Source of the DNA: Eledone cirrhosa
Taxonomy: Eukaryota
Length of the DNA stretch: 64,000 nt
Reading direction: 5' to 3'
Assembly (NCBI GenBank): GCA_964016885.1
Contig: OZ024743.1
Coordinates: forward strand, 333,250,001 to 333,314,000
Part shown: positions 9,001-29,800 of the stretch, in pieces
Layout: each line of letters opens with the position of its first letter
Numbering within the stretch: the first letter of the stretch is position 1
Position numbers and translations under genes: made by a program
The notes under the pieces: model-generated
Seen by the model: only the letters and a program-made list of their open reading frames with translations
Database searches by the model: none
What the model was told of the DNA's origin: nothing

Positions 9001-12000
9001 CTACCTACATCAGTTGTTAGCTGTCGAGACACTGCATCCTTTAAAACCTCCATGGAACAAACTACCTGCATCAGTTGTTAGCTGTCGAGACACTGCATCC
9101 TTTAAAACCTCCATGGAACAAACTACCTGCATCAGTTGTTAGCTGTCGAGACACTGCATCCTTTAAAACCTCCATGGAACAAACTACCTGCATCAGTTGT
9201 TAGCTGTCGAAACACTGCATCCTTTAAAACCTCCATGGAACAAACTACCTGAATCAGTTGTTAGCTGTCGAGACACTGCATCCTTTAAAACCTCCATGGA
9301 ACAAACTACCTGCATCAGTTGTTAGCTGTCGAGACACTGCATCCTTTAAAACCTCCATGGAACAAACTACCTACATCAGTAGTTAGCTGTCGAGACACTG
9401 CATCCTTTAAAACCTCCATGGAACAAACTGCCTGTATCAGTTGTTAGCTGTCGAGACACTGCATCCTTTAAAACCTCCATGGAACAATCTACCTACATCA
9501 GTTGTTAGCTGTCGAGACACTGCATCCTTTAAAACCTCCATGGAACAAACTACCTGCATCAGTTGTTAGCTGTCGAGACACTGCATCCTTTAAAACCTCC
9601 ATGGAACAAACTACCTGCATCAGTTGTTAGCTGTCGAGACACTGCATCCTTTAAAACCTCCATGGAACAAACTACCTGCATCAGTTGTTAGCTGTCGAGA
9701 CACTGCATCCTTTAAAACCTCCATGGATCAAACTACCTGCAACAGTTGCTAGCTATCGAGACACTGCACCCTTTAAAACCTCCATGGAACAAACTACCTA
9801 CATCAGTTGTTAGCTGTCGAGACACTGCATCCTTTAAAACCTCCATGGAACAAACTACCTACATCAGTTGTTAGCTGTCGAGACACTGCATCCTTTAAAA
9901 CCTCCATGGAACAAACTGCCTGTATCAGTTGTTAGCTGTCGAGACACTGCTTCCTTTAAAACCTCCATAGAACAAACTACCTGCATCAGTTGTTAGCTGT
10001 CGAGACACTGCATCCTTTAAAACCTCCATGGAACAAACTACCTGAATCAGTTGTTAGCTGTCGAGACACTGCATCCTTTAAAACCTCCATGGAACAAACT
10101 ACCTGCATCAGTTGTTAGCTGTCGAGACACTGCATCCTTTAAAACCTCCATGGAACAAACTACCTACATCAGTTGTTAGCTGTCGAGACACTGCTTCCTT
10201 TAAAACCTCCATGGAACAAACTACCTGCATCAGTTGTTAGCTGTCGAGACATAGCATCCTTTAAAACCTCCATGGAACAACCTACCTGAATCAGTTGTTA
10301 GCTGTCGAGACACTGCATCCTTTAAAACCTCCATGGAACAAACTACCTGCATCAGTTGTTAGCTGTCGAGACACTGCATCCTTTAAAACCTCCATGGAAC
10401 AAACTACCTGCATCAGTTGTTAGCTGTCGAGACACTGCATCCTTTAAAACCTCCATGGAACAAACTACCTACATCAGTAGTTAGCTGTCGAGACACTGCA
10501 TCCTTTAAAACCTCCATGGAACAAACTACCTGTATCAGTTGTTAGCTGTCGAGACACTGCATCCTTTAAAACCTCCATGGAACAAACTACCTACATCAGT
10601 TGTTAGCTGTCGAGACACTGCATCCTTTAAAACCTCCATGGAACAAACTACCTGCATCAGTTGTTAGCTGTCGAGACACTGCATCCTTTAAAACCTCCAT
10701 GGAACAAACTACCTGCATCAGTTGTTAGCTGTCGAGACACTGCATCCTTTAAAACCTCCATGGAACAAACTACCTGCATCAGTTGTTAGCTGTCGAGACA
10801 CTGCATCCTTTAAAACCTCCATGGATCAAACTACCTACATCAGTAGTTAGCTGTCGAGACACTGCATCCTTTAAAACCTCCATGGAACAAACTGCCTGTA
10901 TCAGTTGCTAGCTATCGAGACACTGCACCCTTTAAAACCTCCATGGAACAAACTACCTACATCAGTTGTTAGCTGTCGAGACACTGCATCCTTTAAAACC
11001 TCCATGGAACAAACTACCTACATCAGTTGTTAGCTGTCGAGACACTGCATCCTTTAAAACCTCCATGGAACAAACTACCTACATCAGTTGTTAGCTGTCG
11101 AGACACTGCTTCCTTTAAAACCTCCATAGAACAAACTACCTGCATCAGTTGTTAGCTGTCGAGACACTGCATCCTTTAAAACCTCCATGGAACAAACTAC
11201 CTGAATCAGTTGTTAGCTGTCGAGACACTGCATCCTTTAAAACCTCCATGGAACAAACTACCTGCATCAGTTGTTAGCTGTCGAGACACTGCATCCTTTA
11301 AAACCTCCATGGAACAAACTACCTACATCAGTTGTTAGCTGTCGAGACACTGCTTCCTTTAAAACCTCCATGGAACAAACTACCTGCATCAGTTGTTAGC
11401 TGTCGAGACATAGCATCCTTTAAAACCTCCATGGAACAACCTACCTGCATCAGTTGTTAGCTGTCGAGACACTGCATCCTTTAAAACCTCCATGGAACAA
11501 ACTACCTGCATCAGTTGTTAGCTGTCGAGACACTGCATCCTTTAAAACCTCCATGGAACAAACTACCTACATCAGTAGTTAGCTGTCGAGACACTGCATC
11601 CTTTAAAACCTCCATGGAACAAACTACCTGTATCAGTTGTTAGCTGTCGAGACACTGCATCCTTTAAAACCTCCATGGAACAAACTACCTACATCAGTTG
11701 TTAGCTGTCGAGACACTGCATCCTTTAAAACCTCCATGGAACAAACTACCTGCATCAGTTGTTAGCTGTCGAGACACTGCATCCTTTAAAACCTCCATGG
11801 AACAAACTACCTGCATCAGTTGTTAGCTGTCGAGACACTGCATCCTTTAAAACCTCCATGGAACAAACTACCTGCATCAGTTGTTAGCTGTCGAGACACT
11901 GCATCCTTTAAAACCTCCATGGATCAAACTACCTACATCAGTAGTTAGCTGTCGAGACACTGCATCCTTTAAAACCTCCATGGAACAAACTGCCTGTATC

Positions 12001-14421
12001 AGTTGTTAGCTGTCGAGACACTGCATCCTTTAAAACCTCCATGGAACAAACTACCTACATCAGTTGTTAGCTGTCGAGACACTGCATCCTTTAAAACCTC
12101 CATGGAACAAACTACCTGCATCAGTTGTTAGCTGTCGAGACACTGCATCCTTTAAAACCTCCATGGAACAAACTACCTGCATCAGTTGTTAGCTGTCGAG
12201 ACACTGCATCCTTTAAAACCTCCATGGAACAAACTACCTGCATCAGTTGTTAGCTGTCGAGACACTGCATCCTTTAAAACCTCCATGGAACAAACTACCT
12301 GCATCAGTTGTTAGCTGTCGAGACACTGCATCCTTTAAAACCTCCATGGAACAAACTACCTGCATCAGTTGTTAGCTGTCGAGACACTGCATCCTTTAAA
12401 ACCTCCATGGAACAAACTACCTGCATCAGTAGTTAGCTGTCGAGACACTGCATTCTTTAAAACCTCCATGGAACAAACTACCTGCATCAGTAGTTAGCTG
12501 TCGAGACACTGCATCCTTTAAAACCTCCATGGAACAAACTGCCTGAATCAGTTGTTAGCTGTCGAGACACTGCATCCTTTAAAACCTCCATGGAACCAAC
12601 TACCTGCATCAGTTGTTAGCTGTCGAGACACTGCATCCTTTAAAACCTCCATGGAACAAACTACCTGCATCAGTTGTTAGCTGTCGAGACACTGCATCCT
12701 TTAAAACCTCCATGGAACAAACTACCTGCATCAGTTGTTAGCTGTCGAGACACTGCATCCTTTAAAACCTCCATGGAACAAACTACCTGCATCAGTAGTT
12801 AGCTGTCGAGACACTGCATTCTTTAAAACCTCCATGGAACAAACTACCTGCATCAGTAGTTAGCTGTCGAGACACTGCATCCTTTAAAACCTCCATGGAA
12901 CAAACTGCCTGTATCAGTTGTTAGCTGTCGAGACACTGCATCCTTTAAAACCTCCATGGAACAAACTACCTCCATCAGTTGTTAGCTGTCGAGACACTGC
13001 ATCCTTTAAAACCTCCATGGAACAAACTACCTGCATCAGTTGTTAGCTGTCGAGACACTGCATCCTTTAAAACCTCCATGGAACAAACTACCTGCATCAG
13101 TTGTTAGCTGTCGAGACACTGCATCCTTTAAAACCTCCATGGAACAAACTACCTGCATCAGTTGTTAGCTGTCGAGACACTGCTTCCTTTAAAACCTCCA
13201 TGGAACAAACTACCTGCATCAGTTGTTAGCTGTCGAGACACTGCATCCTTTGAAACCTCCATGGAACAAACTACCTGCATCAGTTGTTAGCTGTCGAGAC
13301 ACTGCATCCTTTAAAACCTCCATGGAACAAACTACCTGCATCAGTTGTTAGCTGTCGTGACACTGCATCCTTTAAAACCTCCATGGAACAAACTACCTGC
13401 ATCAGTTGTTAGCTGTCGAGACACTGCATCCTTTTAAACCTCCATGGATCAAACTACCTGCAACAGTTGCTAGCTGTCGAGACACTGCATCCTTTAAAAC
13501 CTCCATGGAACAAACTACCTGCATCAGTTGTTAGCTGTTGAGACACTGCATCTTTGAAACCTCCATGGAACAAACTACCTGCATCAGTAGTTAGCTGTCA
13601 GGACACTGCATTCTTTAAAACCTCCATGGAACAAACTACCTGCATCAGTTGTTAGCTGTCAGGACACTGCATCCTTTAAAACCTCCATGAAACAAACTAC
13701 CTGCATCAGTTGTTAGCTGTCGAGACACTGCATCCCTTAAAACCTCCATGGAACAAACTACCTGCATCAGTTGTTAGCTGTCAGGACACTGCATCCTTTA
13801 AAACCTCCATAGAACAAACTACCTGCATCAGTTGTTAGCTGTCGAGACACTGCATCCTTTAAAACCTCCATGGAACAAACTACCTGCATCAGTTGTTAGC
13901 TGTCGAGACACTGCATCCTTTAAAACCTCCATGGATCAAACTACCTGCAACAGTTGCTAGCTGTCGAGACACTGCATCCTTTAAAACCTCCATGGAACAA
14001 ACTACCTGCATCAGTTGTTAGCTGTCAGGACACTGCATCCTTTAAAACCTCCATGGAACAAACTACCTGCACTAGTTGTTAGCTGTCAGGACACTGCATC
14101 CTTTAAAACCTCCATGGAACAAACTACCTACATCAGTTGTTAGCTGTCAGGACACTGCATCCTTTAAAACCCCCATGGAACAAACTACCTGCATCAGTTG
14201 TTAGCTGTCAGGACACTGCATCCTTTAAAACCTCCATGGAACAAACTACCTGCATCAGTTGTTAGCTGTCAGGACACTGCATCCTTTAAAACCTCCATGG
14301 AACAAACTACCTACATCAGTTGTTAGCTGTCAGGACACTGCATCCTTTAAAACCTCCATGGAACAAACTACCTGCATCAGTTGTTAGCTGTCGAGACACT
14401 GCATCCTTTAAAACCTCCATG
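1..14421. repeat. 61-bp tandem satellite array (~236 copies, truncated by window start)
   Basis: Consensus CCTTTAAAACCTCCATGGAACAAACTACCTGCATCAGTTGTTAGCTGTCGAGACACTGCAT. The register recurs at 1, 62 and 3661 (60x61 later). There is a 9-bp insertion at 4991-4999 and a 1-bp deletion near 13552. The array ends abruptly at CCTCCATG (14421). Stops recur in every frame on both strands. Confidence 0.98.
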
Positions 14422-14609
14422 CTCCCCGAAATTCACCAACACTACACCTGATATTCCCCCTCCATACACACACATGCATGTATCTGTGTACATCATGACT
14501 CATATTCTGTTCACTTTCCTGACATTTGTACATTATTCTATGCACTATACATACACTTTTGATGAGTTGTAGTGCACCAGAGCACTGTACACAATAATTT
14601 TTATTATTT

Positions 14610-14775
14610 TTATGATGATAGTTGTGATGAAGGTGGAAATGCTCATGGTGATGATGATGATGATAGTTGTGATAAAGGTGGAAATACTCTTGGTGATGAT
14701 GATAGTTGTGATGAAGGTGATGATGATGATAGTTGTGATGAAGGTGGAAATGTTCATGGTGATGATGATGATGAC
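14610..14775. repeat. (GAT)n-rich low-complexity short tandem repeat
   Basis: Repeated GATGATAGTTGTGATGAAGGTG(GAAAT) units with GAT runs. These explain the overlapping low-complexity ORFs at 14545-14833. Confidence 0.85.
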
Positions 14776-15309
14776 CTATACTTTTGCTACAATTCTGTAT
14801 TTATCTCTGGATAATTTCTCAGAAATACTATAAAGTCCAGGTATTACGAGAAAACAAGGGAGCCTCTTCATGTTTGCTCGAAATGCTAGAAATACCAGCC
14901 AAATCTCCAACCACAATTCACATACCATTTTAAAGAAAGATGGACAAATTGCTTAATATAGTTCTCAATATACTCTTGGGTCTCAAATAATCGTCCTTCC
15001 CCCTTGCTTATTAATTTTTCAGAATTTTTTCAACCTTCCCTGCTTATTAAATTTTGTTAATCTAACTCCGGCAACATTTTTTTTTAAGTGGTAGCATTCC
15101 TGCAACAATTAATTTTCTTTATACATGAAAAAAAAAAAATGCATTAGTAGAAATCTCACACATAAAATAGATAGGATGGGTTGGGGTTTCAATATCTAAA
15201 CTAAACAACTAATACTTAGACATCTCAAGGAATGGATAAAATATCTTGTAGTGCACTTGAGCACTGTACACAATAATTTCCATTATTATTATGTAAATGG
15301 ACGTGTAGG

Positions 15310-15448
15310 CGCCATGGAAAAAAAGCACCCAGCACTCACTGTAAATGAGGTTGGTTTTAGGAAGGGCATCCAGTTGTAGAAATCAAGCCAGAATCAGTTC
15401 CCATCCCACCCTTACAAGCAGGGAAAAGCGGACGTAAAATGATGATTA
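15310..15448 (+). mobile_element. SINE-like fragment with RTE-type 3' tail
   Basis: Contains AGGAAGGGCATCCAGTTGTAGAA, whose reverse complement recurs at 21290-21765. Ends GGAAAAGCGGACGTAAAATGATGAT, like the RTE tails at 22330-22380 (-) and 26125-26176 (+). Confidence 0.55.
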
Positions 15449-15889
15449 TATACAGATATTGCTTCTCTGAATGATATCTTATCTATATATTTTAATCATT
15501 CATTGAGATGCCTAAGTATTAGAGACAAATAATCTTTTAATTAATATTAATAACTCCTTCATTGTAGAGTTGATTTAGATGTTTTTTTTGGCTGCTATTT
15601 ATAACGTTATTACAAGCTCGTCGCATTATCCTGATAAACAAAGATTTGTTCATTTAGTAGTTCAACAAAGCAACGTGTTGGACAGCATGTGGTTATTTCA
15701 ATGATTGGTACATCTTCTGTTTTTGAAACCATGGTAGAGAGATGTTTATATGAGACTTTCTTATTTTAGTCTGTCTGACTTATTCCCTTAAATAGTGTTC
15801 TTTTGGCGTAAGTTTAATATATATATATATGTATGTAGTTGTCTCAAGGCAGAAATGACCATAACAATCCTCAATCATTATAAATAATT

Positions 15890-16092
15890 GGGTGAAGGAT
15901 TGGCAGTATCGGTAGAGCGTCAGACAACATACAGTTACATCCCTTTATGTACTGAGTTCAAATCCCATTGAGGTTAGTTTTGCCTTTCATCCTAAAGGGT
16001 GTTGATAAAATAAAGTACCATTAACACACTGGGGTCAATTTAATCGACTTTCCACCCCCTAAAAATGGTTGGCCTTGTGCCAGAAACCATTA
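15890..16092 (+). mobile_element. tRNA-derived SINE, family A copy
   Basis: A-box-like TGGCAGTATCGG, B-box GAGTTCAAATCC, body TTTGCCTTTCATCC..GATAAAATAAAGTACC..GGCCTTGTGCC. Five other copies occur in the window. Confidence 0.8.
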
Positions 16093-16369
16093 AAAATAAT
16101 AGTTGAGAAAATACCCCTGGTGATTTAAAAAAAAGTGTTATACACATGTTATATACATGTACACAGTATTCTCAGAGATATATCTATGGCAAACACTTAC
16201 ATAACTGCTTTAATGTATTTCCTGTCTTATAAAAATACATAAGCCACCCTTGCCTATAAAAATACAGCTGCTTAAGATTACAACAGACTAACTACAAATA
16301 GAATTCTGCTAACTTTAAATATTACCTAACCACATGTTCTATTTTTGGAGAAATTTTCTTCTTAAACCT

Positions 16370-16525
16370 TTCATAACCACATTTCTAATGAAATACATTC
16401 TATTTTAATTAATTAATGAAGAATTTTGAGGGATTTGCTAAAATTATTAAATATTTCATTACTAAGATAGTAACTTAATGTAAGGTTCTTATATAAAATT
16501 ATGTTGGAAGATTTTAATTTAAATT
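16370..16525. repeat. AT-rich dispersed repeat
   Basis: TTTCTAATGAAATACA..AATTAATGAAGAA(T/C)TTTGAGGGATTT..TTTCATTAC..AATTATGTTG.AAGATTTTAATTT recurs at 19445-19620, with partial copies at 16590-16690 and 19632-19700. Confidence 0.6.
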
Positions 16526-16855
16526 GGAAACCTTTAAAATGGGTGGTTTTATTTCAAAGAACCAGAACCAGTTTTGGCTGTTTTTTTTTTAACCATATTT
16601 CTAATGAAAGTCTGTCTAAATTTCAAATAATTTAGAAAATTAGTAAGAAATTGGAAAGTTTTAATAATATAAATAACTTTCTCATTATTAAGTAGGTGTA
16701 TCTTATTACCCACCCTGTACAGTGCCATGCTTAACCACCCTCACAGCACTTAATATTGCCAAAACCCATTAATTTATTACAATGTAGCAATAAATTGTGA
16801 ATTAACACTACAGATGCAAGCAACATATTTGTAGTACCAATGTCAGCAGTTATTT

Positions 16856-17306
16856 ATATCATCATAATTTAACATCCCTTTTCCCTACTAGCAAGGGTTA
16901 GATGGGTCACCACAGACCAAGCCAACATTTTATTAAAGTTACTGACCTTTTCTCGCACTCTGCACAGTACACCTATATATATGGAGAATAGAAGCATGGA
17001 TGTGCAGTGCTAATGTGCATGAATGGCAAAGGCTGGATGAACTACGTGTAGAGAGTACAGTGCACTGTGAGTGCACAGAATACAGTTAGTGTATAGAGTG
17101 TGGAGGACAATGTATAGAGTATAGTGGATGTATAGAGTACGAATCTATGGTATGTTTAAATTTGAATTCAATATTCCCAAGTTAATTTATAAATGTAATA
17201 TTTGGTTGCTGACCATTATCATCATAATAATTTAACATCCCTTTTCCCTGCTAACAAGGGTTGGATGGGTCACCACAGACCAAACCAACATGTTATTAAA
17301 GTTACT
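16856..17306 (-). repeat. Two ~90-bp direct copies of an RTE-type 3' tail (16856-16945 and 17216-17306)
   Basis: TAATTTAACATCCCTTTTCCCT.CTA.CAAGGGTT.GATGGGTCACCACAGACCAA.CCAACAT.TTATTAAAGTTACTG occurs twice. Its reverse complement resembles the tail at 26125-26176. Confidence 0.65.
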
Positions 17307-17360
17307 GCACTATGCAGTGTACACCTGGTGTATATTATCTTGGCACCATCACTAGAGAAA

Positions 17361-17640
17361 GTGGAGGCATGTGGCCTAGTGGCAAGTGTGTTGGACTTGC
17401 GATTATAATGTTATTGGTTCGATTCCTGGACTGGGTTGTATGTTGTGTTCTTGAGCAAAACACTTCATTTCATGTTGCTCCAGTATACTCAGTTGAAAAT
17501 GAGTACCAGCAATAGCTGGGTGTTTAACCCTGTCATGACCAGGTGGTACTATTATACACTCAGTCGCTTCACACCATGGAAACTGGGATAAGCACTGGCC
17601 TGATGAGCTTCCTGTCTCGAGAAAGACTTTAGACTTTTTT
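17361..17640 (+). mobile_element. tRNA-derived SINE, family B (CORE-like central domain)
   Basis: A box TGGCCTAGTGG, B box GGTTCGATTCC, CORE-like TGTGTTCTTGAGCAAAACACTT, then AAATGAGTACC. A reverse copy lies at 23028-23328. ATCACTAGA on both flanks may be a target-site duplication. Confidence 0.8.
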
Positions 17641-17961
17641 AGATCACTAGAAAGGTTGTCATGTTTTTGACACCTAAAAGAGTTTCCTGACCCATGGGCA
17701 GGTTTTCTACAGCTCAATACCCTTTCTATTCCCAATCACCTTACAGTGTACTGAGGAGGGGGCGGGGGGGATTTATTGTGCAGATCACCAACACTAGAGA
17801 GGTTTTCTTGTTCATGACACAAAATTTTATCTTACAAGTAAATTTATGAGAAAAACAATCAACTCTTAAAAATGAAAAACCAAAAACAGACAAGAAATAA
17901 GTAAATATAAAGCATTTAATAGACAAAATTCTTAAAAATTCATAAAGAATAGATTTCAATT

Positions 17962-17967
17962 TTTATT
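17962..17967 (-). terminator. Putative polyadenylation signal (AATAAA) of SELENOM
   Basis: AATAAA on the minus strand ~80 nt downstream of the SECIS, followed by a U/GU-rich tract at ~17870-17910. Confidence 0.55.
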
Positions 17968-18049
17968 AAATTTTTCTTCTTTTTCGTTCCAATTGAATAT
18001 TGTTTATGTTTTATATATTCTAAAGTAGACTGTAATGCATGACAGCTAA

Positions 18050-18115
18050 ACAACTGTAAGAGGTCAGTCCCAAATCAAGAGTTTAAATTTGAAACGTCAT
18101 ATGAGTTACAGCTGT
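18050..18115 (-). promoter_or_regulatory. Eukaryotic SECIS element (form 1) in SELENOM 3' UTR
   Basis: Minus strand reads ACAGCUGUAA-CUCAU-AUGAC-GUUUCAAAUU-UAAACUCUU-GAUUUGGGAC-UGAC-CUC-UUACAGUUGU. This gives a 10-bp helix I, an AUGA/UGA non-Watson-Crick core (18097-18100 and 18064-18066), a fully paired 10-bp helix II (with G:U pairs) and AAA in the apical loop. Confidence 0.92.
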
Positions 18116-18779
18116 TATGCACAACAAACAGTTTAGAAATAGAAATGTTTCATATACTTTTCACACTTCCACCTACTCATGCACGACAGGTATCTATTAA
18201 TTCTTTCACACTTTCATCCAGCCATGCACGACAGTCACACTTTAGAAATGTATCTATAACTTTCACACATCTACACATGACCAGAGCAGAAATGACAGAA
18301 TTATACCATATTATACAGAAAATAACAACAAAACTGATTACAAAGATTAATAATTTGATTATAGATTATTGATAAGAGGAATGGAGGTGAAAATATCTGA
18401 AGTTATTTGAAAATTTAGCAAACTAAACCTAGTAGATGATATCTTGGTGGTTATTGGAACACTACTCACTATTGGTTTCTGATTGAGGCGCAAAGGAAAG
18501 TCATTTAAATTGATCCTGGTGCATATCAGATGTTGAAACTTTGTGAGACTAAATTAAATTTATTATATATATGAGAGAGAGAGGGGCCTATATACCACTA
18601 ACAAGACCTCATACTCTCAGTAAGATCATTCAGCCCATATTTTGTATAGCCTTTTTATAATTAATATTTCATTTCTTATGTTTTTCATAGATAATTATAA
18701 TTATTTTCCCTCCTAAATATACTAGGTAGAAAGCAGTTCTAAAGATCCCTGTAAAATACAACACCTAACTGTGTTAGCT

Positions 18780-19042
18780 TTGTTTCGTATCTATGGACAT
18801 GTAGTTAAAATGTCCCAGAAAAGAATCGCTGGACAAATTTTATGGACAAAACCAACTAGCAAGAGACCCAGGGTAAATCCTGAACAAGATGGTTAGATAA
18901 AATCCATGAGCTTGGCTCGTCTCATTTGGGGATCTAGCTGGAGAAGTTGGAGACAGTTGTTTCTGACAGGACCCGCTGGAAGGAGTGTTTGAGGTCTCTT
19001 CCCCCACAACCCTCTCAGGAATAAGTGGGCGAAGAAGAAGAT
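18780..19042 (+). mobile_element. RTE-clade (Rex3/Expander-like) LINE 3' fragment, degenerate, antisense within SELENOM 3' UTR
   Basis: Translates, with a frameshift and stops, to FRIYGHVVKMSQKRIAGQILWTKPTSKRPR / *TRWLDKIHELGSSHLGI*LEKLETVVSDRTRWKECLRSLPPQPSQE*, followed by a (GAA)n tail. This matches the RTE C-terminal pattern GHV..RPR..RW..LPP.P. Confidence 0.75.
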
Positions 19043-19262
19043 ACGTGTGTGTCAATTTAAAGTAGTAAAACGTTTGTAAATATGGTAGGTTTACAACAAT
19101 AGTTGGAGAGAAACCATTTCTGAAAAAACAAAACAAATAACAACATACACACATACATACGTACACAATTACATCCAAACTATTATGATAGCAACATACA
19201 CCCATACATTCAAACTCTATTATAAATGATCACCACATATACACCCATACATTCAAACTCTA

Positions 19263-19364
19263 TTATAAATCAGCATTTCCAGCTTTACTATTTTTTTTGG
19301 TGAATCCATTTGATGTCAACAGCTTATTGCAGTCATCCTGGGTTAAATCACTGAGATTGATTGT
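19263..19364 (-). CDS. SELENOM: Selenoprotein M, last coding exon (TINLSDLTQDDCNKLLTSNGFTKKNSKAGNADL*)
   Basis: Acceptor TTTCTTTTGCAG, phase 0, TAA at 19263-19265. Resembles the SelM segment RIPLSEMTREEINALVQELGF and ends in a KDEL-like NADL (human HADL). Confidence 0.9.
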   Translation of the reverse strand, partial: TINLSDLTQDDCNKLLTSNGFTKKNSKAGNADL

Positions 19365-19838
19365 CTGCAAAAGAAATATTCAGTAAGAAAACATAAAACT
19401 CGAGATTAAATTTTAAATATTCAAGAAAGATTTATAACTCGTTAACCCATGTTTCTAATGAAATACACTTTATTTCAATCAATTAATGAAGAACTTTGAG
19501 GGATTTACAAAAATGATTTATCATTTCATTACCAGGATAGTAAGTAATTATTAATTATTTCATTACTAATAACATATGGGTCTAATACAGAATTATGTTG
19601 AAAGATTTTAATTTATATAGGATATCTGTAGTTCAATTAATTAATGGAGAATCTTGAGGGATTTACTACAATTATTAATTATTTCATTACTAAGATAGTA
19701 ACCACTTCAGTAGTAGTACGGATTTTTTAAAATTCCATATACCTTTTTATTCACAGTTGTATAAATAACAAATTGTTCACAATTCTTTCAGAATGAAAAT
19801 ATAAACACAAACAAACACATATAATAATAATACAATTA

Positions 19839-21091
19839 CCGTATATACTCGCGTATAGGTCGCACTTTTTTTAACGATAAATAAGTATAAATTTTTGGGG
19901 TGCGAGCTATCCGATCGACATCAGACTGACCACTGATTTTTCAGACTTAATCAACGATGGGTATTTATAAAAATAACTTTGTTAATATTTTTTATTATTT
20001 AACATAATTTCATATATCTACCTTCTTATACATATATTTCTTGATTTTAAATTTTTTTACTAAAACTTCGTAGTGTTTACTTGTTTTCTATCTGACCGAA
20101 CCATCCGTCATTAAAATCAATAGAAATGCATACATAGTATTTAAAATGTAATTTCATTGTCTTAGCGTTGCGATGAACACGTATTGTGACATATTTACTT
20201 TAACAAGAAACAGATTATTGCACGTGGCTTTTCTTTTCCAAATTAGCAAGTGAGAAATAATTAGTACAAAAATTAGTAAGTGAGATATGTTAAAACGTCA
20301 TACTTTGAATCTAGAAGTACGTCTGATCGGTACAAGGTTTTAGTCTTTCTCGACATCCCAGGCAAATATTTTCATTGAAAAAAATGTATAAAACCTTTTC
20401 ACCAGTCAAAATAATATTTACAATGTACTCTTACACAATGTACGGTGTAAATTTACGTAACAGAATGTTCCCAATATATAAGTTCATTAACAGGTGTGAA
20501 CATGTATTGGTGTTGTATCTTTCAACCCAACCACGTTGCTGTAATATTTTCAATGGTGTCCGTCAGATCTTCGCTTTCACTTTCAAAGTAACTATCATCG
20601 TCAGAAATAAATACGTCTGATTCATTTGAAGATAAATCACTAATATTATCTTGTGTTTCTTTTTCATTTCGAATGTTGTCGCATGTAAAACCTTCAAAGT
20701 CGGTATTCGCTACTTTGGGAAGCCATGTTGATACGCAAAAAATCTGTTATACTTTCAACGTTATTTTTAACGTTGAAAGTATAACAGATTTTTTTGGTAT
20801 CAACATGGCTTCCCAAAGTAGCGTGTTATTTCAAGTTGTTTCACTATATTAAGAGTTAATTTTCGCGCTTAAAGGCTTTATCTCGCAGTAATCTCGAATT
20901 GACGAAATTTCGATGACGTTAATGTTTATTTTATAAATAAAACATGGTTTGGAGTATATATCGCAATGGTGAAGTAATGGATTATTAGTTTCAATTATCA
21001 TAAAAAATAGTAGTTTGACGGCCCAAATTTCAGTGCGATCTATCTGCGAGTCAATGGCAACTAGCCTATTTGCCGGGGCGAGTATATACGG
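19839..21091. mobile_element. Non-autonomous Tc1/mariner (Tc2/pogo-like) DNA transposon in SELENOM last intron
   Basis: Perfect 14-bp terminal inverted repeats CCGTATATACTCGC (19839) and GCGAGTATATACGG (21078-21091). TA target duplications at 19837-19838 and 21092-21093. Subterminal GTGCGA.CTATC motifs. No intact transposase. Confidence 0.85.
20708..20823. repeat. Near-perfect palindrome, 56-bp arms with 4-nt loop
   Basis: 20708-20763 is the reverse complement of 20768-20823 with 2 mismatches. The loop is TTTT. Confidence 0.95.
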
Positions 21092-21289
21092 TAACTATTT
21101 CTAGGAACCTTACAGATACACCACACCAAAATATACGATCAAAGCGAAAGAAACAAAAAAACAAAAACAACCATCAATTAACCACAAGGATCATCGGGAA
21201 TTTTTTAGTCAAGCCAACACGCTTGTGTATTCTATCATGGGACCAGCAATAGGTACGGTGTCGTGTCTTTTACACAGTTGGAGATCTCC

Positions 21290-21765
21290 CAAACCATTGT
21301 TTGGCATGGGTTCTACAGCTATCAATAATTACTAGAGAAGTTGTCATGGCTTTAAGTTGAGTCCTCTTGAGCCTTTTCTTTTGGCAAGGGTTCTACAGCT
21401 GGATGCCCTTCCTATCACCAACCTCTTTACAAGGTATACTGCATGTGTCTTATTATATTGCCACCACTAAAGAATCCTTTTGACCCTTTTTTGGCATGGG
21501 TTCTACGGCTAGATGCCCTTATTATTAACCACTTTACAAGGTGTACTGTGTGTGTTGTATCATGTTTCCAAAACTAGAGGTTGTCATGACCATCTTTGAC
21601 CCTTTTTTGGCATGGGTCTTACAACTGGATGCTCCTCATATCAACAAGTACTTTACAGAGTGTACTGTCTATGCCTTATCCCGTTATTACCACTAGAGAG
21701 GTTGTCATGCCCTTGACACAACAGAAGAATCCTCTTGGCCCTTTTTTGGCTTGGTTTCTACAGCT
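21290..21765 (-). repeat. Degenerate tandem copies (~4-5 units of roughly 85-145 bp) of a SINE-like domain
   Basis: Repeated TTTTGGCATGGGTTCTACAGCTGGATGCCCTT..TTTACAAGGTGTACTG..CACTAGAG..GTTGTCATG. It is the reverse complement of the 15330-15385 motif, with a similar stretch at 17643-17820. Confidence 0.65.
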
Positions 21766-22095
21766 TGGCAGAGTTGTTAGAACGTCAGATAAAATGCTTT
21801 GTAGTATTCATTCTGACTCTCTACTCTCTGAGTTCAAATCCTGCTGAGGTCAACTTTGCCTTTCATCCATTCAAAGTAAAAAAAAGTACTAGTCTAGTAC
21901 TGGGGTCAATTTTTCCTCTATATCTCTTTCTCACTTCCTTTCTGTCACTCTATCCTTCTCTGGAAGAAATCTACTGTATTCAGACCTGGAGAGGAGATGG
22001 GCTCCCCCAGATTTTAAAAATGCCCTAGAAATGCTGTATGTCAATATGGTGCTCCTATGACTCCCTTGGGAGTTATGGTTCCATACCATACTATA
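21766..22095 (+). mobile_element. Family A SINE with extended ~180-bp 3' segment
   Basis: CTGAGTTCAAATCC..GAGGTCAACTTTGCCTTTCATCC..AAGTACTAGTCTAG followed by TTTTCCTCTATATCTC..CCTTCTCTGGAAGAAAT..CCATACCATA. The same composite occurs at 24664-24986. Confidence 0.75.
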
Positions 22096-22181
22096 CCTAC
22101 AGCTTGATGCCCTTTACTGGGTGTATTTGGGTGCAAAATTCAAAACCAAAAGAAGAAGTAATTAATTAAACTCAGTCTTAC

Positions 22182-22260
22182 CTTTATTGTACTATCATTC
22201 TCATCAACTAGAAAGAGGTGTGGTTCTGCACCAGGAACAGCCTTGAAAACAACACCATCA
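22182..22260 (-). CDS. SELENOM: Selenoprotein M, internal 79-nt exon ((Y)DGVVFKAVPGAEPHLFLVDENDSTIK)
   Basis: CAG acceptor at 22261-22263 and donor AAG|GTAAGA. Phase 2 in, phase 0 out, fitting both neighbouring exons. Matches the SelM/Sep15-family motif K.LPGADPEL.L. Confidence 0.93.
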
Positions 22261-22327
22261 CTGATAACGGTTAAAGAAAACAACTTTTATTCCTCTGAGA
22301 AGAAAATAACATTTCTCACTAAGTGAC

Positions 22328-22690
22328 ATATTATCATCATCATCATTTTTACATCTGTTTTTCCACACTTAGATGGGTTGGACGGGTCCTTCTCAGCACA
22401 GCTTCTCTCCATTTGCTGAGTTTCTCCATCATCTCTTCTGTGAGTTTCAGTGATTTGAGGTCAGCTCTTACCACATCTGCCCAGGTCTTTCTTGGTCTAC
22501 CTCTACTGCAGCTCCCATCCACTGGCATTTCTTTCCACTTCTTCACCCATCAATCATCATCCATGTGCATCACATGTCCATACCAACACCATCTTCTCTC
22601 CTGCACACCACCTCAGGTTCTCCCTCAGTTCATCCAAGCTCTGCCTTTCTCTCACATTTACATTACACATCCAACAAAGTATGGCAGCTT
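22328..22690 (-). mobile_element. RTE-clade LINE 3' fragment (degenerate)
   Basis: Translates to VQERRWCWYGHVMHMDDD*WVKKWKEMPVDGSCSRGRPRKTWADVVRADLKSLKLTEEMMEKLSKWR, with the RTE motifs W.GHV and GRPRKTW. Ends in a (GAT)n tail. Confidence 0.85.
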
Positions 22691-23027
22691 TATTTCAATA
22701 CAGTCTATGCATTAACTTAGAATATTGATCTTTCCCAAACCTGATGAGTCTCCAGTTTGGCAAACCTTGAAACACCAAACTGGCCAAAACATTGTTAATG
22801 TGATGACTCAATGCTGCTGTGTGTAGGCCAGATTTGAAGCCATAAAGTAAAGTCATGAATAAACAATTTGGACAGATTCATGTTGATTCCCCGTTGATGG
22901 TGTAACAGAAAATGAGAAATACACACGGCATCTTACAACACAGTGACATAGTGTACCTATTCTAAAAAGCAGCATACACACATCTTACAACATATGAGAT
23001 CAAGAGAAACATTAATGAACAAATCAT

Positions 23028-23328
23028 AGTCTAAGTCTCTCTCAGTCAAAAGGCTGTCTCAAGCAAGGTTTGTAAGGTTAGTGCTTATCTATTTTGTGGC
23101 GAGAAGCAACTGAGAGTACAAGACTTCCCCCTGGACAGGACGCTAGTCCATTGCATGGTTAACCCCCCCACAGCTATTACTGGTACTCATTTTCAGCTGA
23201 GTATACTGGAACAACGTGAAATGAAGTGTTTTGCTCTAGAATGCAACACACAACCCAGCCCAGGAATCGAACTGACGGCATTATGATCGTAAGTCCAACA
23301 CCCTTACCACTAGGCCATGTGGCTCCAC
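23028..23328 (-). mobile_element. tRNA-derived SINE, family B copy
   Basis: Reverse-complement homolog of 17361-17640 (TGGCCTAGTGG, GTTCGATTCCTGG, GAGCAAAACACTTCATTTCA, AAAATGAGTACCAG). Confidence 0.8.
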
Positions 23329-23420
23329 AACAAATGATAGTAATATTGTAATATCTATTTTAGAGGAGAATAATTATGATAGACAAAATTAGAAAGAATG
23401 AGAGTATGTTAAAAGGATAC

Positions 23421-23491
23421 TATTGTGGAAGGTCATCATATATGAAGCGTTTGATTTCAGGTAGTTTGTTCAACTGTCATCCAGTGCAACT
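23421..23491 (-). CDS. SELENOM: Selenoprotein M, Sec-encoding 71-nt exon (SCTGUQLNKLPEIKRFIYDDLPQ(Y)); UGA=Sec at 23477-23479
   Basis: Acceptor TTTTCATTTCAG, then AGT TGC ACT GGA TGA CAG TTG AAC AAA CTA CCT GAA ATC AAA CGC TTC. Aligns with human SelM [24 protein letters not shown], with similarity continuing past the UGA. Confidence 0.94.
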
Positions 23492-23719
23492 CTGAAATGA
23501 AATAACATAAGAAAATAGTAAATATTTCAAAAATATTTCACTGATTCAAAATTTTACAATCAGTTGTATATATTTACATATAGAGAAATAAAAATAAAGG
23601 GGAGGGGGCAAGGGTATGGAAAGGAGTTTGAGTTTTGATTTCCTCAAATTACTTTGTATTATAATAGTCAATTGCATCCAGGATGTGGTAATGCTATAAA
23701 AAAGTTTGACCCTTTGATG

Positions 23720-23810
23720 ACTACAGCAGCCATTACTGCTACTGTTAGTGCTGCTGCTACTACTGCTACTACTATTACTGCCACCACCACCACCACCATC
23801 ACCACCATCA
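23720..23810. repeat. Compound trinucleotide microsatellite (CTG/CTA/CAC)
   Basis: GCTGCTGCTACTACTGCTACTACT..CCACCACCACCACCACCATCACCACC. Confidence 0.8.
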
Positions 23811-23873
23811 AAAAGAAGACTGATTAAAGTTTATGAGATTTCAAGTGTCTTCACATAAAATGTATTGAAATCA

Positions 23874-24056
23874 GGATTGGCAGTATCGGTAGAGAGTTGG
23901 ACACCATGCTTTCCAGCATAGAGTTACGTCCCTTTACGGGCCGAGTTCAAATCCCGTCGAGGTTAACTTTGCCTTTCATCCTTACGGGTCAATAAAACAA
24001 AGTAGCAGTAATGTACTGGGTAATTGCTGGCCTTGTGCCAAAAGTAGAAACAATTA
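23874..24056 (+). mobile_element. Family A SINE copy
   Basis: GGATTGGCAGTATCGGTAGAG..GAGTTCAAATCCCGTCGAGGTTAACTTTGCCTTTCATCC..GGCCTTGTGCCAAAAGTAGAAAC. Confidence 0.8.
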
Positions 24057-24105
24057 TTAAATAAAATATTTATTACTATATGCACCATTTTTGATGGGTA
24101 CTATG

Positions 24106-24108
<3 letters not shown>

Positions 24109-24191
<83 letters not shown>
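24109..24191. repeat. (TA)n followed by (GA)n microsatellite
   Basis: About 33 AT units followed by about 8 AG units. Confidence 0.95.
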
Positions 24192-24663
24192 AAATTCACA
24201 AACACAGCTTTGATAAAGATTAATAAGAAACTGAATATTACTTAATCGGTCCATAAAACAATGGATTATACACTTAGAAGACATTAAATTCATAGTTACA
24301 GTTAGAGAAATGAAACAAAATATATTAAATATTCTTTCTCTTGTTTGTCTTTCTCTAAAAATATCTGTGAATTATCAGATTAATTTACACAAATGTCAGT
24401 AACAGACATAGGTATTAATGTATTAAAATGTTAAGAAAGTCCCATACAATTTGTTAGTTGTGTCACAGCTGTGTGAAATATCAGTGATTACACTGATCTA
24501 TATCTGAACAAAGAGGACTGTTGTTGCTCTCTTTCAAAACAAAGGATCAAGCAGAGTTAGAACAGTGAGATGCCAGCAGAGCTGAGATTCAGCGAACCTA
24601 TTTGTAATACAGTTGTATCAATTATTTGATGTGAGCTGAGATTCAGTGGAGGTATTTATAACA

Positions 24664-24986
24664 CAGTCATTAGAATGTCGGAAAGAATGCTTTGCGGTAT
24701 TTGTTCCTGCTCTCCGTTCTCTGAGTTCAAATCCCACGAGGTCAACTTGGCCTTTCATCCTTTCAAGGTCAATAAAAAAAAGTACCAGTCTAGTTCTGAG
24801 GTCGATTTTTCCTCTATATCTCCTTCTCATTTCACCTCTCACTTTCTATCCTTCTCTGGAAGAAATTAGCTGTGCTCAGACCAGGAGAGGGACAGGCTCC
24901 ACTGGGTTTTAAATTCCCAAGAAATGCCGAATACCACTACGGCGCCCCTAAAACTCCATTAGGAGTTACAGGACCACACCATACCA
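24664..24986 (+). mobile_element. Family A SINE with extended 3' segment (second composite copy)
   Basis: Colinear with 21775-22095. Confidence 0.75.
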
Positions 24987-25029
24987 TATCAATTAGTTGA
25001 TATGCTGACATTTAGTGGAACTATTTATA

Positions 25030-25247
25030 ATGGTTTCTTATATAGCCACAAGGCCAGCAATTTTGGGGGAGGGGAAAGTTGATTAAATCGACCCCAGTGC
25101 GTGACTGGTACTTTATTTTAGCGATCCCGTGAGGATGAATGGCAAAGTTAACCTCGGTGGGATTTGAACTCAGATCATAAAGGGCCGTAACTCTATGCTG
25201 CAAAGCATGGCGTCCAACCCTCTACCGATACTACCAATCCACCACCC
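25030..25247 (-). mobile_element. Family A SINE, near full length
   Basis: Reverse complement of 15890-16092 and 23874-24056. Flanked by TTAGTGGA(A/G)CTATTTATAAT direct repeats at 25012-25031 and 25248-25267. Confidence 0.8.
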
Positions 25248-25914
25248 TTAGTGGAGCTATTTATAATAGTCATATCAATTATTTGATATGAGTTGAGATT
25301 TAGTGGAGGTATTTATAAGTCTAAAGTCTCATTAGGCTGGTGTTTATTCTGGTTTCCTTGGTGTTATACACCTGGGAGTACAAGGCCCCCCCCCCCCCCC
25401 CCCGGTTAGTGGAAGATAGGTGGTGAAAAGTAATATCCCACACAAAATGTAGTTGTAATGTTTATTTTGGGAGGTAATATGAGGAAGAAGTTATAATCAG
25501 TTGGTTAGTGGAAGTTAGGTGGTGAAAGGTAGTATCCCACACTAAATGTTTGGTTTTTGATAAAATCACTATTTTCTCTCCTAGCTGCAAGTTGGTTTGC
25601 ATTTTTATGGCAGTTAACATTACTACTGCTTGTTGAACGAACAGATTCACATATAGATACACACACAAAGACACATTCGCAAATATAGACACACACACAA
25701 TTAAAACTTTCTACCTTTCTTCTATTGCCATGAAATGTTTATTATGGGAGATTTAATCCTTTTATTACCATATACTTCTAGTGAAAGACATTGCCTGTGA
25801 TTTTCAAATAATTTGGAAAAATAATTTATTTGGACGAATTTAGTAACATAATTAAATTTCCTTTTAATAAGTTGGTGTTTGAAAGGTAACTTAAAAGTTC
25901 TCATATAAAATTAT

Positions 25915-26012
25915 AATTGTTTTTACTTTTGGCACAAGGCCAGCAATTATCCCAGTGTATTACTGGTACTTTATTTTATCGACCCCGTAAGGATGAAAGG
26001 CAAAGTTAACCT
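25915..26012 (-). mobile_element. Family A SINE, 5'-truncated
   Basis: TTTTGGCACAAGGCCAGC..TGGTACTTTATTTTATCGACCCCGTAAGGATGAAAGGCAAAGTTAACCT. Flanked by TATAAAATTATAAT repeats at ~25905 and ~26015. Confidence 0.75.
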
Positions 26013-26074
26013 TGTATAAAATTATAATGGAAGGTTTTTAGATAAATATAAATACCAAAGCAATTTTGTATTGT

Positions 26075-26176
26075 GACGAGCGAGGCACAGTCACCCGACC
26101 AATCTTGCCTCAAGTGGACAACTACCATCTAACCCATGCTAGCGTGGAAGATAGACGTTAAACGATGATGATGATG
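26075..26176 (+). mobile_element. RTE-type LINE/SINE 3' end with (GAT)n tail
   Basis: CCATCTAACCCATGCTAGCGTGGAAGATAGACGTTAAACGATGATGATGATG resembles the tail of the RTE fragment at 22330-22385. Confidence 0.6.
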
Positions 26177-26808
26177 AACCAGGGATAGTTTCAGACAGTT
26201 TAGTATCAAAAGGGTTGATGTTATTGATGGAATCCATTTTTTTAACTCATGTTTTTCTTTTTAAATAAAACCTAGTTCAAACCAATTATGGTTCCCATTA
26301 ATAAGAAAAAAAAAAGTTAAAATGTGAATCAACTAAAGAAACTTCTATTCTCAGGTCCCAAACAAAAGGGTGGGGTGGGGAAATCGGTAATTTTTCTACG
26401 TTGTCTCTGTTGATTTAAAAATAAAAATCAGTTGTTTAATTTACATAGAGACCCCAATATTTTATAACATGGAATTTCAAGTTCTGATGAAAGACTAGTG
26501 TCTAAAATGTAATAAACTCTTTTCCTAAGCGTTAAACTAATATATTTCTTCGTTGGACTGTGTTGTTTGCTATGTTGCTTCCATTTACTTTTTGCATGCA
26601 TACACACACACACATATATATATATGCAGAGACAGGTGATAGTGAGAGAGAGGAGGGATAAAGAAATCATGTTGAATGAATGGAAACATTTAGAACATTC
26701 ACCACCGCCCATTTGTTTTAAATTTGTGTTCTATGGATTTTAAATACAATGTTATAAAGTTTTCGAAAGACAGACAAAAAGACTGTGAAGTTATAATATT
26801 GTCTCTTG

Positions 26809-29800
26809 GCGTCTAGGTATTTAGTGTCCTAGGTCAGCATCTGGGTATTTAGTGTCCTAGGTCAGCATCTAGGTATTTAGTGTCCTAGGTCAGCATCTGG
26901 GTATTTAGTGTCCTAGGTCAGCATCTAGGTATTTAGTGTCCTAGGTCAGCATCTAGGTATTTAGTGTCCTAGGTCAGCATCTAGGTATTTAGTGTCCTAG
27001 GTCAGCATCTGGGTATTTAGTGTCCTAGGTCAGCATCTAGGTATTTAGTGTCCTAGGTCAGCATCTAGGTATTTAGTGTCCTAGGTCAGCATCTAGGTAT
27101 TTAGTGTCCTAGGTCAGCATCTGGGTATTTAGTGTCCTAGGTCAGCGTCTGAGTATTTAGTGTCTTAGCTCAGCGTCTGAGTATTTAGTGTCCTAGGTCA
27201 GCATCTAGGTATTTAGTGTCCTAGGTCAGCATCTGGGTATTTAGTGTCCTAGGTCAGCGTCTGGGTATTTAGTATCCTAGGTCAGCGTCTGGGTATTTAG
27301 TGTCCTAGGTCAGCGTCTGAGTATTTAGTGTCTTAGGTCAGCGTCTGGGTATTTAGTGTCCTAAGTCAGCATCTGGGTATTTAGTGTCCTAGGTCAGCGT
27401 CTAGGTATTTAGTGTCCTAGGTCAGCGTCTGGGTATTTAGTGTCCTAGGTCAGCGTCTGAGTATTTAGTGTCTTAGGTCAGCATCTGGGTATTTAGTGTC
27501 CTAAGTCAGCATCTGGGTATTTAGTGTCCTAAGTCAGCATCTGGGTATTTAGTGTCCTAGGTCAGCATCTAGGTATTTAGTGTCCTAGGTCAGCGTCTGG
27601 GTATTTAGTGTCCTAGGTCAGCGTCTGAGTATTTAGTGTCTTAGGTCAGCATCTGGGTATTTAGTGTCCTAAGTTAGCATCTGGGTATTTAGTGTCCTAG
27701 GTCAGCATCTGGGTATTTAGTGTCTTAGGTCAGCATCTGGGTATTTAGTGTCCTAGGTCAGCATCTAGGTATTTAGTGTCCTAGGTCAGCATCTAGGTAT
27801 TTAGTGTCCTAGGTCAGCATCTAGGTATTTAGTGTCCTAGGTCAGCATCTAGGTATTTAGTGTCCTAGGTCAGCATCCAGGTATTTAGTGTCCTAGGTCA
27901 GCATCTGGGTATTTAGTGTCTTAGGCCAGCGTCTAGGTATTTAGTGTCCTAGGTCAGCATCTGGGTATTTAGTGTCCTAGGTCAGCGTCTGGGTATTTAG
28001 TATCCTAGGTCAGCGTCTGGGTATTTAGTGTCCTAGGTCAGCGTCTGAGTATTTAGTGTCTTAGCTCAGCGTCTGAGTATTTAGTGTCTTAGCTCAGCGT
28101 CTGAGTATTTAGTGTCCTAGGTCAGCGTCTGGGTATTTAGTATCCTAGGTCAGCGTCTGGGTATTTAGTGTCCTAGGTCAGCGTCTGAGTATTTAGTGTC
28201 TTAGGTCAGCGTCTGGGTATTTAGTGTCCTAAGTCAGCATCTGGGTATTTAGTGTCCTAGGTCAGCGTCTAGGTATTTAGTGTCCTAGGTCAGCGTCTGG
28301 GTATTTAGTGTCCTAGGTCAGCGTCTGAGTATTTAGTGTCTTAGGTCAGCATCTGGGTATTTAGTGTCCTAAGTCAGCATCTGGGTATTTAGTGTCCTAA
28401 GTCAGCATCTGGGTATTTAGTGTCCTAGGTCAGCGTCTGAGTATTTAGTGTCTTAGGTCAGCATCTGGGTATTTAGTGTCCTAAGTTAGCATCTGGGTAT
28501 TTAGTGTCCTAGGTCAGCATCTGGGTATTTAGTGTCTTAGGTCAGCGTCTGGGTATTTAGTGTCGTAAGTCAGCATCTGGGTATTTAGTGTCCTAGGTCA
28601 GCGTCTAGGTATTTAGTGTCCTAAGTCAGCATCTGAGTATTTAGTGTCTTAGGTCAGCATCTGAGTATTTAGTGTCTTAGGTCAGCGTCTGGGTATTTAG
28701 TGTCCTAAGTCAGCATCTGGGTATTTAGTGTCTTAGGTCAGCGTCTAGGTATTTAGTGTCCTAAGTCAGCATCTGAGTATTTAGTGTCTTAGGTCAGCGT
28801 CTAGGTATTTAGTGTCCTAAGTCAGCATCTGGGTATTTAGTGTCCTAGGTCAGCATCTGGGTATTTAGTGTCCTAGGTCAGCATCCAGGTATTTAGTGCC
28901 CTAGGTCAGCATCTGGGTATTTAGTGTCCTAGGTCAGCATCCAGGTATTTAGTGCCCTAGGTCAGCGTCTAGGTATTTAGTGTCCTAGGTCAGCATCTGG
29001 GTATTTAGTGTCCTAGGTCAGCATCTGGGTATTTAGTGTCCTAGGTCAGCATCTAGGTATTTAGTGTCCTAGGTCAGCATCTAGGTATTTAGTGTCCTAG
29101 GTCAGCATCTGGGTATTTAGTGTCCTAGGTCAGCATCTGGGTATTTAGTGTCCTAGGTCAGCATCTAGGTATTTAGTGTCCTAGGTCAGCATCTAGGTAT
29201 TTAGTGTCCTAGGTCAGCATCTGGGTATTTAGTGTCCTAGGTCAGCATCTGGGTATTTAGTGTCCTAGGTCAGCATCTGGGTATTTAGTGTCCTAGGTCA
29301 GCATCCAGGTATTTAGTGTCCTAGGTCAGCATCTAGGTATTTAGTGTCCTAGGTCAGCATCTGGGTATTTAGTGTCCTAGGCCAGCATCTGGGTATTTAG
29401 TGTCCTAGGTCAGCGTCTGGGTATTTAGTGTCCTAGGTCAGCGTCTGGGTATTTAGTGTCCTAGGTCAGCATCTGGGTATTTAGTGTCCTAGGTCAGCGT
29501 CTGGGTATTTAGTGTCCTAGGTCAGCGTCTGGGTATTTAGTGTCCTAGGTCAGCATCTGGGTATTTAGTGTCCTAGGTCAGCATCTGGGTATTTAGTGTC
29601 CTAGGTCAGCGTCTGAGTATTTAGTGTCCTAGGTCAGCGTCTGAGTATTTAGTGTCTTAGCTCAGCGTCTGAGTATTTAGTGTCCTAGGTCAGCATCTGG
29701 GTATTTAGTATCCTAGGTCAGCGTCTGGGTATTTAGTGTCCTAAGTCAGCATCTGGGTATTTAGTGTCCTAGGTCAGCGTCTAGGTATTTAGTGTCCTAG

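Follow-up and report, generated by a model that had tools for sequence, protein, structure and literature searches.

Minor introns are already on record in the selenoprotein M genes of mammals. In MIDB, SELENOM of human and Selenom of mouse are both entered as minor-intron genes (Table S1/S2, PMC6717393), with a 371-nt intron at chr22:31105287-31105657 in human and a 321-nt intron at chr11:3516521-3516841 in mouse. According to Table S6 of PMC11347168, two of nine datasets (those with U12 and U6atac morpholinos) show a response of the human intron, and one of six U11-knockout sets shows a response of the mouse intron; since a response in one or more datasets is seen for approximately 60% of the human minor introns that are expressed, as stated in the part of that study drawn on here, the response of the human SELENOM intron is typical. 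Among 11 mouse tissues, the Selenom intron passes the filter in two, with a mis-splicing index of 0.025 in bone and 0.020 in cerebrum (Pcyt2: 0.10-0.50), and such low retention (~2%) can also reflect fast decay of the retained RNA. More generally, a survey of more than 3,000 genomes concludes, in the sections considered here, that most minor introns persist neutrally, and describes a relative enrichment in molluscs (PMC10639083). In O. bimaculoides, 401 of 114,266 introns are minor and all four minor snRNAs (U11/U12/U4atac/U6atac) are present. SelM genes, for their part, are known in sponge, sea anemone, annelid and amphioxus, to go by the part of PMC3473315 used here.

We analyzed a 64,000-nucleotide stretch of Eledone cirrhosa DNA (contig OZ024743.1; hereafter the window), in which a minus-strand gene with the features of SELENOM carries a predicted minor intron directly after its Sec exon. 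An initial annotation had called this intron U12-type and proposed that it could couple selenium supply, NMD and minor splicing. It had also suggested comparing the class of the intron with SELENOM orthologs and observing the effect of U6atac knockdown, and for both the published data supply an answer: the human and mouse introns are already catalogued as minor, and the human intron is mis-spliced under U6atac and U12 morpholinos in the two datasets mentioned above. The reading that we consider highly probable is that the intron in the window would be excised by the minor spliceosome, is likely the same ancient intron as that of human and mouse SELENOM, and is likely an ordinary, efficiently spliced intron with no role as a selenium sensor.

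The selenoprotein M gene and its surroundings

Most of the window consists of satellite DNA, and the non-satellite interval, 12.4 kb in length with 35% GC, contains dispersed repeats and one minus-strand gene between two long homogeneous arrays (Table 1). The exon with the in-frame UGA reads S-C-T-G-UGA-Q-L-N-K-L-P-E-I-K-R-F-I-Y-D-D-L-P-Q, followed by TA at its end. With the UGA taken as Sec, it matches positions 5-27 of the Pfam profile PF08806 (Sep15_SelM; E = 4.4e-6, 27.1 bits against a cut-off of 26), and its best PDB match is mouse Selenoprotein M (2a2p, E = 8e-4). The 79-nt exon matches the same profile starting at exon residue 2 (E = 0.088), and because the two matches are adjacent, with a gap exactly large enough for the split Tyr plus the residue that follows, the 71-nt and 79-nt exons are contiguous. 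CXXU is described as the hallmark of SELENOM and CXU as that of SELENOF in the portion of PMC9344019 relevant here; a SELENOF (Sep15) identity was rejected, the motif in the window being CxxU (C-T-G-U) and not CxU. The last coding exon has no PF08806 profile match, and the predicted protein ends in A-D-L, as does human SELENOM. Such C-terminal ends have an ER-retention-like role, and the protein would probably be located in the ER.

Searches for further homologues used single exons of 23-48 residues as queries, so short that blanks carry little weight: a representative-protein search with the 79-nt exon and its flanks returned just five long repeat-like proteins (30-41% identity; the one inspected was a tandem-repeat sequence), a PDB search with the same exon gave no match, and word-index searches found no homologue.

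In the predicted 3′ UTR, approximately 1.16 kb past the stop codon, we found a SECIS-like hairpin with a fold z of -2.85, for which none of 200 shuffles was equally stable, and which matches Rfam SECIS_1 weakly (19.7 bits against a gathering threshold of 35, E = 9.4). Its AAA loop agrees with the AA loop given as the non-placental form for SelM in the part of PMC3316567 consulted. A separate AATAAA, at 18564 on the minus strand, comes after the stop codon but ahead of the hairpin; if used, it would yield an mRNA lacking the SECIS, and it may be a chance occurrence in AT-rich DNA.

No convincing signal-peptide (first coding) exon was found in 23492-27000. This gap, along with the position of the gene between two long satellite arrays, could be taken to indicate a dead or orphan gene fragment without a first exon, whose intron goes unused. 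Against this stand three exons in a single open frame with intact splice sites, the CxxU motif and the A-D-L end, as well as the SECIS-like hairpin and the AATAAA signals downstream of it, and we regard a dead fragment as extremely improbable. The signal-peptide exon probably sits beyond the 28-bp array; satellite DNA may account for over 37 kb of the gene's first intron, or the gene may be broken at this array in the assembly.

The introns also contain repeats. The palindrome in the last intron yields mir-548-like Rfam matches at ~20.7 kb; a microRNA at this position was rejected, as the scores fall below gathering and reflect the palindrome, which is probably a MITE-like element. The 158-nt repeat of the minor intron includes a weak tRNA-like Rfam match (23256-23324), which suggests a tRNA-derived SINE. 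In the introns flanking the two central exons, a segment of ~220 nt is duplicated, with copies 77-84% identical and ~2.9 kb apart. No tRNA genes were found in the window, and no U11, U12, U4atac or U6atac snRNAs were present among the Rfam matches in 14400-26900.

Table 1 Features of the window, with positions counted from its first nucleotide
Feature	Position	Strand	Remarks
Satellite, 61-bp unit	1-14421		236 copies, 95% matches
Inverted copy of 158-nt repeat	17361-17518		87%; downstream of SECIS-like hairpin
AATAAA signals beyond SECIS-like hairpin	17967, 17920, 17777	-	
SECIS-like hairpin, predicted 3′ UTR	18050..18109	-	AUGA 18100-18097, 10-bp stem, AAA loop, 3′-side UGA
Last coding exon	19263..19364	-	TAA stop at 19265-19263 after 33 codons, which end in A-D-L; assignment based on frame, acceptor and C-terminus
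Last coding intron, U2-type	19365..22181	-	2,817 nt
Palindrome, near-perfect	20708-20823		56-nt arms, 96% complementary, 4-nt spacer; within last intron of SELENOM gene
Duplicated segment (~220 nt), first pair	21877-21994 and 24773-24890		
Duplicated segment (~220 nt), second pair	21769-21841 and 24662-24734		
Next coding exon after Sec exon	22182..22260	-	79 nt, then U2 donor GTAAGA at 22181; PF08806 profile 30-51
Predicted U12-type GT-AG intron	22261..23420	-	1,160 nt, phase 2, within Tyr codon TA|T
Minor-type branch-site 12-mer TTTTCTTTAACC	22269..22280	-	one C-to-T change from commonest core
158-nt repeat within minor intron	23171-23328		
Minor-type 5′ splice site 12-mer ATA|GTATCCTTT	23412..23423	-	identical 12-mer in MIDB table
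Sec exon	23421..23491	-	71 nt, CxxU motif; PF08806 and PDB match
In-frame UGA, putative Sec codon	23477..23479	-	Sec reading based on family match and SECIS
U2-type acceptor of intron before Sec exon	23492..23521	-	ordinary, pyrimidine-rich, ends CAG; pyrimidine fraction 0.8 over 20 nt
Satellite, 28-bp unit	26812-64000		1,328 copies, 92% matches

Splice signals and ancestry of the intron

The donor, GTATCCTTTT, begins at 23420 on the minus strand and fits RTATCCTT, and the candidate branch adenosines at 22272 and 22271 lie 12 and 11 nt, respectively, before the end of the CAG at 22261. In U12-type introns the branch point is ~10-20 nt from the 3′ splice site; here, after the branch 12-mer, just GTTATCAG remains before the intron end. 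These are the signals that the initial annotation had described without giving a strand, and its other particulars hold as well: the Tyr codon is split TA|T in phase 2, with profile continuity across the exons, the next donor (GTAAGA) is of the ordinary U2 type, and the UGA lies 56 nt from the minor-intron junction, with a further junction downstream—the last one, U2-type and 135 nt after the UGA. No in-frame alternative donor occurs within 35 nt of the minor-intron donor. The nearest strong alternative acceptor, at 22295, was rejected since it breaks the frame, and no good in-frame alternative to the acceptor was found.

Neither motif is enriched window-wide (RTATCCTT, 4 found vs. 5.1 expected; TTCCTTRAY with at most one mismatch, 16 found vs. 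47 expected, both against a baseline distorted by the satellites), so it is motif placement and not abundance that counts: the sole RTATCCTT in the 12.4-kb interval falls exactly at the exon edge. The background chance that a GT continues as ATCCTT is 2.5e-4, and the chance of any of 8 common branch 8-mers within a 15-nt window is 2.3e-3; the joint value for donor and branch, 6e-7, is post hoc, as the list of 8-mers was our own and included the observed one.

To score the intron class, as the initial annotation had proposed, we matched both 12-mers exactly against the 794 rows of the MIDB minor-intron table (supplement file 1 of PMC6717393). The donor 12-mer is found there 8 times, scoring 92.64 with the human matrix and 92.05 with the mouse matrix, and the branch 12-mer occurs twice, both times in a catalogued human minor intron, scoring 86.90. 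The scores in the window (92.6 and 86.9) are higher than those of the human SELENOM intron (91.4 and 84.2) and of the mouse Selenom intron (89.0 and 74.2). Across the table, GTATCCTTT is counted 455 times and TCTTTAAC 49 times, vs. 243 for TCCTTAAC and 174 for TCCTTGAC.

A minor-like intron in the course of conversion, removed in practice by the major spliceosome, might also present GT-AG ends, a C-T instead of a C-C in the branch site, and a pyrimidine fraction before the CAG (0.75 over 20 nt) that resembles the U2 acceptors (0.8 and 0.7), a measure which, although U12-type introns are expected to lack a U2-type pyrimidine tract ahead of the AG, here does not separate the two classes. A C-C pair in the branch site is said to mark strong minor use in the section of PMC11347168 that deals with it, and the missing second C counts against strong minor use of the intron in the window. 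The donor, however, matches the minor 9-mer perfectly and follows an A, not a G, and both 12-mers outscore those of the human and mouse introns that do respond to loss of minor splicing. We give conversion hardly any credence, and on its splice signals the intron is almost certainly U12-type. Like other GT-AG U12-type introns it combines an RTATCCTT donor, a branch site near the acceptor and a non-zero phase, and is a single minor intron among major ones, with nothing distinctive except the one-base branch-site variant.

A GT-type minor donor follows an exonic TA in human (CTA) and mouse (GTA), as it does here, and the branch core TCTTTAAC is identical in mouse Selenom and in the window, whereas the mammalian introns, at 371 and 321 nt, are much shorter than the 1,160 nt found here with repeat-like sequence inside. 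From Sec48 to Tyr67 the human protein spans 19 residues, equal to the window, which would place the human junction 56 nt past the UGA too. The pair Phe66-Tyr67 is compatible with the listed exonic CTA (human sequence from the relevant part of PMC5364654), although four of the five Tyr residues of mature human SELENOM could give an exonic CTA, so that the human intron position is not fixed thereby. A search of the supplement of PMC7507305 found no SELENOM rows. The intron in the window likely occupies the same codon as the human minor intron. We take the latter to lie at Tyr67, with a 79-nt exon after it; in mammalian SELENOM a further U2 intron presumably separates the Sec codon from the minor donor, both of which are here in one 71-nt exon. 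That SELENOM carries a minor intron in both mammals, the exonic TA and the 19-residue spacing between Sec and Tyr are consistent with one inherited intron, without amounting to proof.

Selenium, NMD and intron class

If the intron is the ordinary minor intron that we favor, its GTATCCTT donor would be recognized by base-pairing with U11, and its branch site, 11-12 nt ahead of the CAG, by base-pairing with U12, as the sequence and the human knockdown data suggest, and splicing would join TA to T, rebuilding the Tyr codon. With the intron retained, TA would instead read TAG, a stop exactly at the junction (window 23420-23422), and the unspliced RNA would be unproductive; retention in human and mouse would likewise give a stop at the junction, if their donors are in that phase. 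Unspliced RNA of the gene in the window contains two stop-like codons, UGA and UAG, 56 nt apart.

An immediate UAG upon retention would also suit a rate-limiting switch independent of selenium, in which the intron throttles SELENOM according to U6atac levels, for example under stress or in particular tissues. A general switch model for the minor spliceosome has reportedly been published (PMC3728624). The response of the human intron to U6atac and U12 morpholinos agrees with such a switch, but in Table S6 of PMC11347168 the intron is unresponsive in 7 of the 9 datasets for human and in 5 of the 6 for mouse, retention was picked up in no more than two of the 11 mouse tissues, at ~2%, and the MIDB authors caution, in the passage at hand, that inefficient splicing is not general to all minor-intron genes (PMC6717393). 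We consider this kind of throttling unlikely.

The initial annotation went further, and held that expression depends on two rare machineries which could couple selenium, NMD and minor splicing. The need for both machineries stands, following trivially from the intron class and the Sec codon; the coupling is not supported. It would mean that the intron has been kept 56 nt after the UGA, with slow splicing or the junction complex tuning the response to selenium. The 56-nt spacing is real, likely shared with human, and just above the limit of the rule described in the part of PMC4105750 drawn on here, by which NMD calls for a junction located over 50-55 nt past the Sec UGA. The NMD-sensitive selenoprotein mRNAs named there, those of GPx1, SelW, SelH and SelM, share this arrangement with the gene in the window, and SelM mRNA drops modestly at low selenium in HEK293T cells (PMC4105750). 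UPF1, moreover, is itself a minor-intron gene.

The 50-55-nt rule nevertheless holds here with or without the minor intron, because the U2 junction lies 135 nt past the UGA. A minor-intron-dependent, selenium-responsive NMD switch would require the minor junction for this rule, and the minor junction is not required. As for the 56-nt spacing, protein length dictates it as soon as the position of the intron has been inherited. The rule is also a weak predictor of selenium sensitivity, because GPx4 mRNA satisfies it yet is stable according to parts of PMC4105750 and PMC5397149. Pre-mRNAs did not change in low selenium in a representative subset, where SelM is not named, and intron class goes unmentioned in the NMD model, as far as the parts of the paper examined are concerned (PMC4105750). 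The junction complex is a disputed contributor to invertebrate NMD, its role being argued both ways even in flies in the portion of PMC6173133 concerned. Directly after the UGA we found no stable hairpin (z = 0.47, 132 of 200 shuffles as good), and a literature search of limited, mostly open-access scope found no published link between selenium and minor introns.

Nor do selenoprotein genes as a group favor coupling. SELENOM and TXNRD2 are the only selenoprotein names in the MIDB table, and minor introns in 2 of 25 human selenoprotein genes are at chance level (P ~0.22, for a base rate of 714 in ~20,000 genes, a round total not taken from the table). In both human and mouse, TXNRD2, like SELENOM, has a minor intron of the GT type (MIDB), but this selenoprotein gene is classed as NMD-resistant, with its UGA close to the last junction, in the part of PMC4105750 cited above, which implies that minor introns and selenium-linked NMD are not generally found together. 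UPF1, a core NMD factor, and TXNRD2 are both minor-intron genes in human and mouse (PMC6717393, rows 587 and 83), and the donor 12-mer of mouse UPF1 is identical to that in the window.

With the U2 junction, the ~2% retention in mouse, the chance-level count of selenoprotein genes and the GPx4 counterexample all against it, we judge coupling of selenium, NMD and minor splicing to be very unlikely, and it is just as doubtful that the minor intron has been kept since the common ancestor with mammals as a two-input gate, set by U6atac level and selenium, on SELENOM mRNA reaching decay. Low mouse retention, the lack of enrichment among selenoprotein genes and the neutral persistence of most minor introns in the genome survey favor an ordinary intron. 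In the spliced mRNA of such a gene, the UGA would be read through as Sec via the 3′ UTR SECIS, and termination at the UGA when selenium is short could expose the mRNA to decay. Decay would be equally possible via the U2 junction or via the 3′ UTR of more than 1.1 kb, which would make intron class irrelevant.

Were coupling true after all, disorders of the minor spliceosome would be tied to selenoprotein output, and a SELENOM minigene would lend itself readily to testing the idea. In practical terms, the gene is an annotation trap, combining an in-frame UGA, a minor donor and a missing first exon. The feature itself is already known, the SELENOM minor intron being catalogued in human and mouse; to this the window adds what is likely an invertebrate copy of the catalogued intron, which would date the intron deep in animal history.
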